DNA of 16,218 bases from a virus: UHGV virus genome UHGV-0099062; one strand, 5' to 3'. The notes under the pieces are model-generated. The model was not told the DNA's origin and did not search any database. It worked only from the letters and a program-made list of their open reading frames with translations. The position numbers and the translations under genes are program-made. Every line of letters starts with the position of its first letter. Position 1 is the first letter of the stretch. Below, one piece after another: positions 1,763 to 11,555 of this stretch.

Positions 1763-2251
1763 ATGGCAGCACCAAAGGGCAACCGATTCTGGGAGGCCCG
1801 CAGTAGTCATGGGCGAAACCCTAAATTCGAATCGCCTGAGGCGCTGTGGGCTGCTTGTTGTGAATACTTCGAGTGGGCTGATGATAACCCGCTATGGGAG
1901 GGTAAGGTATTTTCATATCAGGGAGAAATAATTAAGGCTAATCTTCCTAAGATGCGAGCCATGACTATTTCAGGATTGTGTACCTTCCTTGATATCACCA
2001 GGCAAACATGGGGAACCTTCCGGTCAATGGAAGGTTTTTCTGACGTCACATCACGAGCGGAAGACATCATCTACGACCAGAAATTCTCTGGCGCAGCCGC
2101 TGACCTTCTCAACGCTAACATCATCGCCCGTGATTTGGGCCTCAAAGAGCAGTCGCAAGTTGAAGACGTGACACCTGATAAGGGAGATCGCGATAAGCGA
2201 CGCTCTCGTATCAAGGAGCTATTCAACCGTGGAACTGGACGCGATTCTTGA
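1763..2251 (+). CDS. terS: Terminase small subunit (P22 gene 3 type)
   Basis: [38 protein letters not shown]... is a typical enterobacterial podovirus TerS. Length from the second ATG is 162 aa, the size of P22 gp3. RBS spacing favours ATG 1763 over the track start 1757. The 3' end overlaps terL. Confidence 0.85.
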
Positions 2252-3725
2252 TAACCTGAGCGACGAAGAGCAAATCGAGTTGCTCGAGCTACTCGAAGAA
2301 GAAGAGAACTACCGGAACACACACCTGCTATATGAATTTACGCCATACAGCAAACAGCGTGAGTTCATCGACGCCGGGCATGACTATCCAGAGCGCTGTT
2401 TTATGGCTGGTAACCAGCTTGGTAAGTCATTTACTGGTGCTGCTGAAGTCGCGTTTCACCTTACCGGGCGTTATCCGGGCACAAAAGGCTATCCTGCTGA
2501 TGGTAAATATGGCGGTGAGTGGAAAGGTAAGCGTTTCTATGAGCCTGTTGTCTTCTGGATTGGCGGCGAGACAAACGAGACTGTAACCAAAACGACTCAA
2601 CGCATCCTGTGCGGTCGTATTGAAGAGAATGACGAGCCAGGCTACGGTTCCATACCGAAAGAAGACATCATTAGCTGGAAGAAGTCTCCTTTCTTTCCGA
2701 ACCTTGTTGATCATCTTCTGGTTAAGCATCACACGGCTGATGGCGTTGAAGATGGCATTTCAATCTGCTACTTCAAACCATACTCGCAAGGACGCGCTCG
2801 CTGGCAGGGTGACACAATCCACGGCGTGTGGTTTGACGAAGAGCCACCATACAGCATTTATGGCGAAGGGCTTACCCGTACCAACAAATACGGGCAATTC
2901 TCAATTCTGACGTTTACCCCGCTGATGGGGATGTCTGACGTTGTTACCAAGTTCCTGAAGAATCCCAGCAAGTCGCAGAAAGTGGTCAACATGACCATCT
3001 ATGACGCTGAGCACTACACCGACGAGCAGAAAGAGCAAATCATCGCATCTTATCCTGAGCATGAGAGAGAGGCGCGTGCTCGCGGTATTCCTACGATGGG
3101 TAGCGGTCGAATCTTCCAGATACCGGAAGAGACGATTAAGTGTCAGCCGTTCGAGTGTCCTGATCACTTCTACGTCATCAATGCAATGGACTTCGGATGG
3201 GATCACCCACAGGCACATATCCAGCTTTGGTGGGATAAAGACGAGGACGTGATTTATCTTTCTCGCGTCTGGAAGGCCAAACAGAAGAAGGCGACAGAGG
3301 CATGGAGTGCTGTTAAAGCATGGAGCAAAAACACCCCTACGGCTTGGCCTCATGACGGGCATCAGCACGAAAAGGGAGGCGGCGCTCAGCTCAAGGAACA
3401 ATACGCCGACGCTGGGTTCGACATGTTGCCAGATCATGCAACATGGCCTGATGGAGGTAATGCGGTCGAACCCGGGATAGCAGAGATACGCGACATGATG
3501 CTCGACGGTCGTTTCAAGGTATTTAACACCTGCGAGCCATTCTTTGAAGAGTTTCGCCTGTATCACCGCGATGAGAACGGGAAGATCGTCAAGCTAAATG
3601 ACGACATCCTTTCTGCTGTTCGCTATGGCTACATGATGAGGCGTTTTGCAATACAGATGCGAGACATCAAAGATCCTAAAGAGATTGATTACTCAAGCTA
3701 CAACATACCTTGCGGAGTTGGATGA
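2229..3725 (+). CDS. terL: Terminase large subunit (P22 gene 2 type; ATPase + nuclease)
   Basis: 498 aa. N-terminal ATPase region with a Walker A-like GNQLGKS and a Walker B-like WFDEEP motif. GTG start overlapping terS by 23 nt; AAGGAG 10 nt upstream. Stop TGA overlaps the portal ATG (ATGATG). Confidence 0.95.
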
Positions 3726-8235: not shown

Positions 8236-8424
8236 ATGGCACGAACAATGCTCTATAAGCCTGGCAACATGATCACCTGTGGTCAGTTTGCTGTCGATTA
8301 CATCATCGTTGATGACGAAGAAGTTAAATCTCACCTGAAAAAAGGCTGGGTAAAAACTCCTGAAGAAACCGCAACGAAGCAAAAAGTGGCTAAGGCGGAA
8401 GAAGATGGCGAAAACGAAGGGTGA
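8236..8424 (+). CDS. Small hypothetical protein between coat and gp4 (62 aa)
   Basis: ATG at 8236 preceded by GGGAGA. The track start at 8200 is a TTG lying inside the terminator hairpin, so 8236 is preferred. 3' end overlaps the gp4 start by 20 nt. A small ORF at this position is common in non-P22 subtypes of P22-like phages. Confidence 0.55.
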   Translation: MARTMLYKPGNMITCGQFAVDYIIVDDEEVKSHLKKGWVKTPEETATKQKVAKAEEDGENEG

Positions 8425-8866
8425 TCTCGTTCTAAAGGCTTTACGAAAAGCCGGGCTGTATTCCAATGCCACGTTGACAGATGCTGACCCTCAGGCAATT
8501 GAAGATGCCATTAATGACCTCGAAGACATGATGGCAGCATGGCAGGCTAAAGGTATCGAGCTTGGATATCAGTTTGCTGATACAGAAAACGGCATCATGC
8601 CGTTACCTGACGATGATTCAGGTATCCCTGCATGGGCAAATGATGGCGTCGCTTTGAAACTCGCTGTGCAAGTGTGCATGGATAACGTCATTCAGCCGTC
8701 AGACGCTCTCCTTACCGCTGCTGACAGTGCATATCAAACAATCTGTATCGCTTTAACCAAAATACCACCACTTGAGCGGCGAAATGATATGCCTCGCGGG
8801 GCGGGGTTAAAAAGCGCGTTTACGTGGAATCGGTTTTACATCGAGAAAGATGATCCGAGTACGTGA
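8405..8866 (+). CDS. gp4: Head-completion / tail adaptor protein (P22 gp4 homolog)
   Basis: [47 protein letters not shown] matches the P22 gp4 N-terminus pattern (TKGDLV..ALRK.G...ATLTD.EPQ...A.DDLE.MMA.W) and its position. Confidence 0.9.
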   Translation: [153 protein letters not shown]

Positions 8867-8875
8867 GGTGAATAA

Positions 8876-10294
8876 ATGCCGATTCAGCAACTTCCGCTTA
8901 TGAAAGGTGTCGGCAAAGACTTTAGAAACGCCGACTATATCGACTATCTGCCAATGAATATGTTGGCTACACCCAAAGAAATCCTGAACAGCAGCGGATA
9001 TCTTCGCTCATTCCCTGGCATTGCCAAACGCTCTGATGTGAACGGTGTATCTCGCGGCGTCGAGTACAACATGGCGCAGAATGCTGTTTATCGCGTATGT
9101 GGTGGTAAGCTGTACAAAGGAGAAAGTGAAGTCGGTGACGTCGCCGGAAGTGGTCGCGTATCAATGGCGCATGGTCGAACATCTCAGGCTGTAGGCGTTA
9201 ATGGTCAACTGGTCGAGTATCGCTATGATGGCACGGTTAAAACCGTCTCAAACTGGCCTACAGACAGTGGATTCACGCAGTATGAGTTAGGCTCAGTCCG
9301 CGACATTACGCGCTTGCGTGGGCGTTATGCGTGGTCAAAAGACGGCACTGATTCATGGTTTATCACTGACCTTGAAGACGAATCGCATCCTGACCGTTAC
9401 AGCGCACAATATCGTGCCGAGTCTCAGCCGGACGGCATCATCGGTATCGGAACATGGCGAGACTTCATCGTCTGCTTTGGCTCATCGACGATTGAATATT
9501 TCTCCCTGACGGGCGCAACCACTGTTGGTGCCGCTTTGTATGTCGCACAACCATCGCTGATGGTGCAGAAAGGCATCGCCGGAACCTACTGCAAAACGCC
9601 GTTTGCTGATTCGTATGCGTTCATCAGCAATCCGGCAACAGGTGCGCCGTCTGTATACATCATCGGCTCCGGTCAGGTGTCACCAATCGCCAGCGCGAGC
9701 ATTGAGAAAATCCTCCGCTCCTACACTGCTGATGAACTGGCTGATGGCGTGATGGAATCGTTGCGCTTTGATGCTCATGAGTTGCTGATTATCCACCTTC
9801 CGCGCCACGTCCTAGTATATGACGCATCTTCAAGCGCTAATGGTCCGCAATGGTGTGTGCTGAAAACAGGCTTGTATGACGATGTGTACCGCGCTATCGA
9901 CTTCATTTACGAAGGCAATCAGATAACGTGCGGAGATAAGCTGGAATCGGTTATCGGCAAATTGCAGTTCGACATCAGCAGCCAGTATGGGCTACAGCAA
10001 GAACATATTTTATTTTCACCATTAATAAAGGCAGATAATGTCATTATTAATGACCTTGAATTAGAAACATCAGGCGGCGTGTGTGATAGAATAGATAAAA
10101 TATTTATATCAGCAACAACAGATGGAATAAATTACGGCAGGGAACAAATGGTCGTATTGCAATCTCCATTTGTATATGACAATCGAGTCTTATGGCGCAG
10201 GATTGGAAGAGTTAGACGTCTCATCGGTTTTAAATTCAGAGTTATTGCAAAAGGCCCGGTTACATTATCCGGACTGTCTATTCGTACAACATAA
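8876..10294 (+). CDS. gp10: Tail hub / head-completion protein (P22 gp10 homolog)
   Basis: 472 aa, the same length as P22 gp10, with near-identity over long stretches as remembered (MPIQQLP.MKG.GKDF.NADYIDYLP.NMLATPKEILNSSGYLRSFPGI...). The last ~100 codons are AT-rich. Confidence 0.95.
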   Translation: MPIQQLPLMKGVGKDFRNADYIDYLPMNMLATPKEILNSSGYLRSFPGIAKRSDVNGVSRGVEYNMAQNAVYRVCGGKLYKGESEVGDVAGSGRVSMAHGRTSQAVGVNGQLVEYRYDGTVKTVSNWPTDSGFTQYELGSVRDITRLRGRYAWSKDGTDSWFITDLEDESHPDRYSAQYRAESQPDGIIGIGTWRDFIVCFGSSTIEYFSLTGATTVGAALYVAQPSLMVQKGIAGTYCKTPFADSYAFISNPATGAPSVYIIGSGQVSPIASASIEKILRSYTADELADGVMESLRFDAHELLIIHLPRHVLVYDASSSANGPQWCVLKTGLYDDVYRAIDFIYEGNQITCGDKLESVIGKLQFDISSQYGLQQEHILFSPLIKADNVIINDLELETSGGVCDRIDKIFISATTDGINYGREQMVVLQSPFVYDNRVLWRRIGRVRRLIGFKFRVIAKGPVTLSGLSIRTT

Positions 10295-10315
10295 ATCGAA
10301 ACTTAAGGAGTAGAT

Positions 10316-10861
10316 ATGTTAAGTGAAGATATTAGAGATGTAGTTGGTTATGAGGGGCTTTATGCGGTAACTCGTGATGGTAGAGTTTACTCTCACTCAA
10401 GGATAATAAATACATGCCATGGGGCTACTCGATTAATGAAGGGTAGATGGCTGAAGCCAGCAAAGGATGGGGGCGGATATCTATTTGTTGGTCTCTGTAA
10501 GGATGGAGAGGTTAAACCAAAAAAAATACATCGAATTGTTGCTGAGGCATTTATTGAAAACAAAGAATCTAAACCATTCATCAACCATATAGATAATAAT
10601 AATCAAAATAATAATGTAGAAAATCTTGAATGGTGTACGCAACATGAAAACATGCAGCATTGCTCTAGAAGCGGTAGGGTGAAAATACCTCATTATGTGG
10701 GTTCTGAACATCCATCGTCCAAATTAAATGAAGATATAGTTCTGGTCATAAAAAATGATTTGATTACGCCAATTAGCGAGTTAGCTGCAAGATATAATGT
10801 GACTGTTCAGGCCATACACGCCATTAAAAAAGGGAAGACATGGAGGCATGTGAATGGCTGA
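10316..10861 (+). CDS. Free-standing HNH homing endonuclease (NUMOD4 + HNH_3 + C-terminal HTH)
   Basis: NUMOD4 motif [18 protein letters not shown]; HNH_3 core [46 protein letters not shown]; C-terminal HTH-like [45 protein letters not shown]. Strong RBS AAGGAG 7 nt upstream. Hand counts on 60-nt samples give about 22% GC here versus about 48-52% in flanking genes. Confidence 0.9.
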
Positions 10862-11555
10862 TCCCAATCTCAACGTGCCAGTAACTATCCAGGCCACCCG
10901 GCTAGACACATCAATCCTTCCACGCAATATATTCAGCCAGTCTTACCTGCTGTATGTCATTAATCAGGGGGCTGATGTCGGCGCAATTGCCGGGAAGGCA
11001 AATCAGGCTGGTCAGGGCGCTTACGATGCTCAGGTGAAAAACGATGAACAGGACGTCGAACTGGCAGATCACGATTCAAGAATCACCGCAAACACAAAAG
11101 CGATAAATCTCCTTGAGGTCAGGTTAACAACCGCCGAAGGGAAGATAGTCGTACTGCGTAGCGATGTTGATTACTTGCTGGATGAGGTTATCGATATTCA
11201 GGCGCATCTGGTCACTGTTGACAAAAGACTGGATGGCGTAGAAAGCGATGTATCTGACATTAAGAGTGATTACGTATCGAAAACCGTAACCAAATTGCAG
11301 TCTCTTGCGTCACCGCTGGATGTAAAAACATCATATTCAGTTGATGGAATTCAGGTTGTTGGAGCAAGAAATACCGGATGGACTGCAGCCACAGGTACAC
11401 CTCTTCTTGGCTCATTCAACGCTAACCAGTCATACACGGTCGGCACTACGTACACACAATCCGAAGTCGCAGCTATCGCTACAGGTTTGGAGCAGGCGCG
11501 GCAGCGTATTCTGGCGCTTGAAACAGCACTTAGATTACATGGGTTGATTGACTGA
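10854..11555 (+). CDS. gp26: Tail needle protein (P22 gp26 homolog), trimeric coiled-coil fibre
   Basis: 233 aa. [36 protein letters not shown]...[31 protein letters not shown] and C-terminal ...[21 protein letters not shown] match P22 gp26. Start overlaps the HNH stop (ATGGCTGA); stop overlaps the gp14 start (TGATG). Confidence 0.95.

Follow-up and report, generated by a model that had tools for sequence, protein, structure and literature searches.

Organization of the gp10/gp26 locus

The window studied here is a stretch of 16,218 nucleotides (nt) of the virus genome UHGV-0099062, and its content corresponds to the late region (lysis and virion assembly) of an Escherichia coli P22-like prophage. 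Between gp10, which encodes the tail hub, and gp26, which encodes the tail needle, it carries a plus-strand open reading frame (ORF) of 181 amino acids (aa) at positions 10316-10861. A preliminary description, made from the sequence alone, had taken this ORF for a homing endonuclease gene (HEG) with NUMOD4 and HNH_3 domains, and Pfam confirmed both domains above their cut-offs. The idea that a free-standing HNH HEG has invaded a P22-like late operon was also upheld, by the domains, the profile and fold matches, the presence/absence polymorphism, the base composition and the occurrence of the same patch of DNA in diverged backbones. The features of the locus are listed below (GC3, GC content at the third codon position; SD, Shine-Dalgarno sequence; HTH, helix-turn-helix).

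8876-10294, plus strand: gp10, tail hub or packaged-DNA stabilisation protein (Pfam Phage_stabilise, E = 7e-281)
8876-10005, plus strand: conserved part of gp10, the left homology arm, common with HEG-less prophages (GC3 0.54)
9995-10903, plus strand: whole putative laterally transferred patch (co-conversion tract), with the gp10 C-terminus, the spacer, the HEG and the gp26 start
10006-10294, plus strand: final 96 gp10 codons in their AT-rich allele, invariably accompanied by the HEG (GC3 0.29)
10295-10315, plus strand: 21-nt spacer with the SD of the HEG (AAGGAG, 10305-10310)
10316-10861, plus strand: putative I-HmuI-like free-standing HNH homing endonuclease gene (181 aa, ATG start)
10334-10495, plus strand: NUMOD4, N-terminal beta DNA-binding domain (aa 7-60; Pfam PF07463, E = 2.6e-8)
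10523-10657, plus strand: HNH_3, catalytic beta-beta-alpha-metal motif (aa 70-114; Pfam PF13392, E = 9.4e-9)
10586-10588, plus strand: codon of H91, aligned to H75 of I-HmuI
10730-10855, plus strand: predicted C-terminal helical (HTH-like) DNA-binding domain (aa 139-180; helices of the AlphaFold2 model and alignment with I-HmuI)
10842-10846, plus strand: SD of gp26 (GGAGG) within HEG codons W176-R177, read from the sequence
10854-11555, plus strand: gp26, tail needle (PHROG 1219, E = 2.4e-112); ~50 nt at the start fall within the transferred patch, the remainder forming the right homology arm

As previously described, the HEG has a ribosome-binding site of its own, located 5 nt ahead of its ATG, and its stop codon overlaps the start of gp26 (ATGGCTGA, 10854-10861). 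The SD of gp26 lies inside the final codons of the HEG, 7 nt ahead of the gp26 ATG, and TGGAGGCAT at this SD is kept in all HEG clades. Two minus-strand ORFs (10393-10584 and 10481-10711) were taken as chance ORFs because the domain hits fall in the plus-strand frame.

Family, domains and predicted fold of the protein

Pfam calls were judged against the curated cut-offs, which are exceeded by both NUMOD4 (34.4 bits vs. 23.4) and HNH_3 (35.2 bits vs. 24.8). The 181-aa protein also matched PHROG 59 ("HNH endonuclease"; E = 2.9e-52). A profile built from 54 homologues matched the homing endonuclease I-HmuI (PDB 1U3E) with E = 3.5e-32 over query residues 5-178, a span that takes in the C-terminal HTH domain of I-HmuI. 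The AlphaFold2 model (mean predicted local distance difference test score, pLDDT, 90.8) displays an N-terminal beta domain with strands at residues 6-70 (NUMOD4 region), a beta-beta-alpha core and four C-terminal helices (139-147, 153-160, 164-172 and 177-180; pLDDT ~85-96). When this model was compared with the PDB using Foldseek, the sole significant fold match was 1u3e_M (E = 2.6e-8, probability 1.00, 182 columns), the next one reaching only E = 0.058.

Residues H91, N103 and N112 align with H75, N87 and N96 of I-HmuI. All three are invariant in 14 homologues, and in the set of 54 sequences H91 and N103 are invariant and N112 is nearly so. By every testable feature (domains, profile and fold), the predicted protein belongs to the I-HmuI-like HNH family. 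The preliminary description had also placed an HTH motif at the C-terminus, for which no Pfam family was found at E <= 1; the presence of a C-terminal HTH DNA-binding domain is nevertheless supported by the profile match to 1U3E and by the modelled helices at 139-180. Finally, the endonuclease has a dN/dS ratio (nonsynonymous to synonymous substitution rates) of 0.05-0.39 in all comparisons with unsaturated dS, and the HEG is therefore under purifying selection.

Prevalence in E. coli genomes and in phages

We surveyed 5,426 complete Escherichia coli genomes by megablast, with a 2-kb query running from the 3' part of gp10 to the 5' part of gp26. This query was matched in about 915 genomes, and the AT-rich gp10 end was found in 56 of them (56/5,426). 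A concatenated query of the endonuclease variants likewise detected full-length copies in 56 genomes, and the accessions agree wherever both lists show them. The linkage between the AT-rich gp10 end and the endonuclease is thus 56/56. By endonuclease type, 4 of these genomes group with the window, 16 with HZ41 and 36 with O111, the O111 type being present in E. coli O111:H- 11128, whose genome was reportedly published in 2009. In all five loci that were opened, the endonuclease gene follows gp10, one of them bearing an IS1 insertion. About 6% of the related E. coli prophages therefore carry a version of the HEG, and about 94% of the relatives, including P22 and HK620, are without it. The HEG is a recurrent minority resident of the gp10/gp26 site.

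Such genes had not been counted as a regular feature of P22-like phages; the HEG is not an oddity there, given 56 of about 915 E. coli genomes with a homologue at the site and the related HEGs found between gp4 and gp10. The preliminary description had also named two findings that would speak against an inserted HEG, namely the lack of any HNH or NUMOD4 hit and a conserved core gene of ordinary GC content in all P22-like genomes; neither was observed.

Over 651 nt around the ORF, the window matches three E. coli chromosomes (KE40 and NRZ105822 included) at 100% identity and a fourth, PEC011, at 99.8%. Among 50,697 phage records, only HZ41 has the AT-rich gp10 end and a homologue at the gp10/gp26 site. 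A scan of one genome per species gave no close copy, and distant relatives (<=42% identity), mostly from Firmicutes, swamped the alignment query. An AT-rich gp10 end lacking a HEG was seen neither among the 5,426 E. coli genomes nor in the phage collection.

Some copies are interrupted by insertion sequences (IS). In E. coli M160133, an IS1 lies just past the start of an HZ41-type endonuclease gene (locus L009, 2122-2891), and in ETEC6333/6334 an IS3-family element disrupts the O111-type gene (locus L095, 1568-2796). Given these disrupted copies, the HEG is dispensable for prophage maintenance.

In RefSeq, the HEG proteins are labelled "NUMOD4 domain-containing protein" or "HNH endonuclease". 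Three entries from E. coli P22-like prophages (WP_042048397.1, WP_021514124.1 and WP_000947776.1) represent the same gene family at the same locus, and the coding DNA of WP_042048397.1 is 100% identical to the window ORF; these entries differ from the present description in being automatic annotations only. A literature search found no paper on a HEG at gp10/gp26, on its linkage with the gp10 end or on its clades, two likely reviews by Casjens lying outside this search. The kind of gene is well known, and this one is automatically annotated in dozens of genomes.

Empty site and extent of the acquired tract

HK620 and most relatives have a locus that is 560 nt shorter, in which gp10 and gp26 are adjacent, as had been stated, and overlap by a single base (TAATG). 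We used AF10, a HEG-less E. coli, to align the empty site with the window. The two sequences show 1 mismatch in 9896-10005, then only ~55% nt identity from 10006 to the gp10 stop (60-62% aa identity with the HK620/AF10 allele). In gp26, there are 14 mismatches with AF10 in nt 9-53 and then none up to nt 382. The alignment of filled and empty sites proposed in the preliminary description thus gives break points at 10006 and ~10907 relative to AF10, and TAATG as the HK620-type empty site.

As delimited by this comparison, the acquired tract is ~10006 to ~10907, i.e. 96 gp10 codons, the 21-nt spacer, the HEG and the first ~18 gp26 codons. The HEG does sit at the gp10/gp26 junction. The insertion is not "precise", because the acquired tract starts inside gp10 and ends ~50 nt into gp26. 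In an annotation, the "insertion" should therefore be drawn from ~10006 to ~10903, wider than the ORF alone.

Two classes of gp10 C-terminal alleles can be told apart: those linked to a HEG share 80-98% aa identity with each other, and 56-63% with those of the other class. In the search for a donor of the gp10 C-terminus, a word-indexed protein search with its 95 aa yielded nothing but short fragments, among which an identical partial Salmonella protein ranked best, and tblastn with the gp10 C-terminus against the phage collection detected nothing nearer than 69.5% besides HZ41.

Base composition of the patch

The HEG ORF has a GC content of 37.7% and a GC3 of 0.30. It had been described as sharply AT-rich (about 22% GC) between flanks of about 50% GC. 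Its GC content is indeed low, and the lowest value over 60 nt is 20% (at 10549); the figure of 22% fits such a local minimum and not the ORF overall. The contrast with the flanks does not stand on the upstream side, where the last ~290 nt of gp10 have 37.4% GC and a GC3 of 0.29. In comparison, GC3 is 0.54 in the rest of gp10 and 0.46 in gp26. The composition of the patch is foreign, and this difference in GC3 (0.29-0.30 vs. 0.54 and 0.46 in the flanks) argues for a foreign origin.

The GC3 switch occurs ~95-120 codons before the gp10 stop in every carrier, distant backbones included. The HEG-linked gp10 C-terminus has a GC3 of 0.19-0.38 in every backbone (window, L001, L004-L013 and L098-L101), and the rest of gp10 reaches up to 0.66. 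Although the clades appear to be old, the patch as a whole has a GC3 of 0.2-0.4 in each backbone. The HEG-linked gp10 C-terminus displays no sign of amelioration, despite saturated dS between the HEG clades.

Diverged clades at one site and lateral spread

Homologues with 99% down to 48% identity (P0001-P0009; IMG/VR loci L098-L101) are all located between gp10 and gp26. The 21-nt spacer is found in all of these loci, as is an overlap between the stop of the HEG and the start of gp26, which measures 8 nt in most of them. Three deeply diverged HEG clades (44-56% aa identity), between which dS is saturated, occupy the exact gp10/gp26 site, and the homologues adjoin very different gp26 types (233, 255, 317 and 323 aa). 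The endonucleases at this site are 42-86% identical, and the gp10 ends linked to them are 80-98% identical to each other.

Three loci with the window-type gene, L097 (NRZ105822), L098 and L099 (both from IMG/VR), differ from the window by 4.9-6.5% in nt 1-1124 of gp10. Against this background, the window shows zero mismatches with L097 in 9995-10903 and with L098 in 9995-10918, and three internal mismatches with L099 (10741, 10895 and 10898), for which the left edge is at 10001. Sharp divergence resumes in L098 and L099 within ~20-60 nt of the gp26 start. For 900 bases to match by chance at a divergence of 5.5%, the probability is ~1e-22. The HZ41-type clade shows the same pattern of near-identical patches, carriers with different gp26 types included: HZ41 and L004 have different gp26 genes and only 2 differing positions in 10000-10899 (window-equivalent coordinates). 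Because this near-identical tract lies in backbones that are 5-6.5% diverged in the rest of gp10, the comparison indicates that the patch spread laterally and recently between backbones.

Between the window and L006, dN is 0.10-0.11 for the HEG and the gp10 C-terminus, 0.27 for the N-terminal part of gp10 and 0.22 for the gp26 N-terminus. Between the window and HZ41, the flanks are close (dS ~0.3) and the dN of the endonuclease is 0.45. Judging from these divergences, our results show that one clade replaced another at the same site, besides the lateral spread of the patch. Locus comparisons thus reveal two of the marks by which HEG mobility is recognized, a filled/empty polymorphism and a history distinct from that of the flanking genes.

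Expression and genetic setting

We screened the interval 9500-11300 for RNA families and transcription signals. No Rfam family was found at E <= 1, and neither a plus-strand promoter-like site nor a terminator-like site was detected in this interval; two minus-strand hits were fewer than expected from shuffled sequences. An intron-encoded HEG (group I or II) was ruled out by the lack of an Rfam match, by the complete gp10 and gp26 ORFs on either side and by the SD of the gene itself. As intron RNA, a plus-strand promoter and a terminator were all looked for and not detected, the HEG is taken as free-standing and presumably transcribed by read-through from the late promoter. There is also no sign of an RNA hairpin over its SD, the fold of 10255-10360 being no better than that of shuffled sequences (z = 0.5).

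The overlap of the two genes had been read as making gp26 translation dependent on the intruder. Such dependence is not evident: coupling of gp26 to the HEG is possible and not required, because gp26 keeps its own SD GGAGG.

The spacer ATCGAAACnnnAGGAGTAGAT (10295-10315) has the same length in all examined HEG-positive loci, and 18 of its 21 positions are invariant. This constancy holds across endonuclease clades of 44-86% aa identity, and the adjacent codons vary synonymously. Its conservation exceeds what an SD by itself would require, and the spacer may possibly act as an autoregulatory or recognition site.

Other endonuclease genes at or near the junction

An unrelated HNH gene was found at the same gp10/gp26 junction in Escherichia phage vB_EcoP-683R2 (ON470594; locus L002, 2098-2592). 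This 164-aa HNH_3 and AP2 gene adjoins an ordinary gp10 end of normal GC content, and it is mislabelled as "endolysin" in the record. Its last codons (R-I-E) and TAATG duplicate the usual gp10 terminus, and gp26 coupling is therefore rebuilt. With HEGs of different families found there, the gp10/gp26 junction looks like a hotspot.

Related NUMOD4-HNH genes are also present between gp4 and gp10 (L010, 151-735; L094, 2852-3576; Salmonella phage UPF_BP1, 20433-20951) and in at least 16 further E. coli genomes. The gene at this site follows a 93-nt stub that duplicates the gp10 5' end. It has 41-52% aa identity with the variants of the gp10/gp26 site, and over the first ~135 nt it matches the HZ41-type gene at 88% identity. 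The ES5 copy is broken into two ORFs and has probably decayed. Homologues with ~45% identity occupy a different genome position in Escherichia phage N7 (35994-36503) and Salmonella phage ST-35 (33048-33557); the N7 homologue is not adjacent to gp10, and N7 has P22-type gp10 DNA.

Gene order in the rest of the window

The other genes located in the window are as follows.

105-404: Rz
606-1127: KilA-N gene (KilA-N domain, E = 8e-22)
1485-1727: DUF2560 gene
1757-2251: gp3, small terminase
2229-3725: large-terminase ORF, named by synteny with an annotated related prophage
8405-8866: gp4
Downstream of gp26: gp14-like DUF2824, gp7 and gp20, each with a Pfam match
After gp20: ORF at the gp16 position, without a Pfam match and named by synteny

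The large terminase, portal, scaffold and coat ORFs were assigned by their order and sizes in comparison with a related annotated prophage. The KilA-N ORF (606-1127) is located between Rz and the DUF2560 and small terminase genes. It looks like another accessory insertion, because the NRZ105822 prophage, which carries the HEG, has only a 50-aa hypothetical gene at this position. In the nin region of the same NRZ105822 prophage (L097, 493-1017), a second gene is annotated "HNH endonuclease signature motif containing protein", beside a frameshifted rusA.

Proposed mechanism and alternative explanations

We consider it probable that this gene is a free-standing, promoterless HEG of the I-HmuI type, homing at the gp10/gp26 site of the P22-like late operon. 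Its transcription would be shared with the late structural genes and its translation would start from its own SD, the enzyme being made late in infection. When a HEG-positive and a HEG-less P22-like genome meet in one cell, by co-infection or by infection of a lysogen, the enzyme would nick or cut the HEG-less genome near the gp10/gp26 junction, and repair from the HEG-positive genome would copy the HEG. As the last 290 nt of gp10 (~55% identity) would be too diverged to recombine, the left crossover would be forced upstream of ~10006 and the gp10 C-terminus would always be co-converted, while the right crossover would fall in the conserved 5' end of gp26. The 3' end of the HEG would provide the gp26 SD and the start overlap, keeping an essential operon working. 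The fixed left boundary and the complete linkage can be explained by the two classes of gp10 alleles being too different to recombine, and the gp10 end need not be the target itself.

Several points weigh against homing. The enzymatic activity, the target site and a unidirectional inheritance are assumptions of this model. In the window family, Asn90 stands next to the catalytic His, instead of Asp74 as in I-HmuI. No HEG-less allele with the AT-rich gp10 end was seen, so that the classic cycle, in which a HEG invades, decays and is lost, cannot be seen here, although IS-disrupted copies exist. The deep divergence of the clades, with saturated dS, is that of a long-term resident, and persistence could be partly vertical. 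Moreover, P22-like phages are highly mosaic, and ordinary homologous recombination could move a 900-bp patch.

This last point leads to the view of a passive mosaic module, in which a C-terminal variant of the tail hub is exchanged by homologous recombination and the HEG is an inactive or irrelevant passenger, locked in place by non-homology. The two classes of gp10 C-terminal alleles and the coincidence of the left break point with the edge of homology fit such a view, and the locus does meet host defences, since TaiEcC targets gp26 (PMC11364771). Against it, the catalytic residues and the full domain set are kept between clades whose identity is 44-86%, and dN/dS is well under 1. The three HEG clades also share nearly the same gp10 C-terminus, and the HEG therefore turns over independently of the gp10 end. 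The unrelated HNH-AP2 gene beside an ordinary gp10 end points to the junction itself as a HEG site. We thus regard a purely passive module as unlikely.

We give slightly less weight still to a nuclease of competition or exclusion, whose main effect would be to cut competing P22-like genomes during co-infection or superinfection of induced lysogens, and which would give the markers around it an advantage, whether homing is efficient or not. Several deep clades occupy one site here, as do I-HmuI and I-HmuII in SPO1 and SP82, where marker exclusion is known. Marker exclusion has also been shown for the I-HmuI-like HNH enzymes of Skunavirus (PMC12724721). However, this effect is compatible with homing and is not an alternative to it, and expression from a repressed prophage is unlikely as no promoter was found. 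A packaging-associated HNH protein working with the terminase, as in HK97-like cos phages (HK97 gp74-like), was considered because the HNH protein is encoded within the morphogenesis operon. It was rejected on Pfam family and architecture (HNH_3, NUMOD4 and HTH vs. the small PF01844 type), on its distance from gp3 and the large terminase (~6.6 kb downstream of the large-terminase ORF) and on its absence from ~94% of viable relatives, and is effectively refuted.

One may also speculate that at least three deeply diverged I-HmuI-like lineages compete for one site by cutting rival or empty genomes, a case of marker exclusion like that described for I-HmuI and I-HmuII, the AT-rich gp10 end being a permanently captured cleavage-immune allele. 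We hold this scenario to be doubtful. If it were true, a selfish nuclease would be the force behind the exchange of domains in a structural gene that temperate phages and their prophages cannot do without.

Significance of the locus and comparison with known systems

Free-standing homing endonucleases are textbook residents of virulent phages of the T4, T7, SPO1 and Skunavirus types, and temperate phages and prophages are much less studied in this respect. The locus offers a compact natural system, with one site, three diverged clades and part of an essential tail gene whose co-conversion would be obligatory, for which hundreds of sequenced empty sites and at least one isolated carrier phage (HZ41) are available. 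It could be used to gauge the nuclease-driven and the passive shares of mosaicism in P22-like structural genes. For specialists, its value lies in the apparently obligatory co-conversion of a tail-hub domain, in three old clades at one site and in clean evidence of recent spread.

The closest known relative in architecture is I-HmuI of Bacillus phage SPO1 (PDB 1U3E), the family of which also includes I-HmuII, I-BasI and I-TwoI. The likeness extends over the full-length three-part architecture (NUMOD4 beta domain, HNH_3 and predicted C-terminal HTH), with a sequence identity of ~26%. [quoted passage not shown]

In genetic setting, the window gene resembles T4 mobE, a promoterless HNH HEG located between two conserved genes (nrdA and nrdB), which depends on read-through for its transcription, nicks a neighbouring gene and has its flanking DNA co-converted (PMC2790892). 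MobE differs by the type of phage and the genes invaded, and its target was mapped experimentally, whereas the window gene is known from sequence. The HNH endonucleases of the lactococcal Skunavirus are likewise free-standing and present or absent between close relatives, with some sites in morphogenesis regions; these I-HmuI-like genes cluster by insertion site (PMC12724721). They differ by their Gram-positive hosts, the virulent lifestyle of the phages and their non-homologous sites. By analogy, the behaviour documented for MobE and implied for the Skunavirus enzymes would be the same as the one proposed here for the HEG of the gp10/gp26 site.

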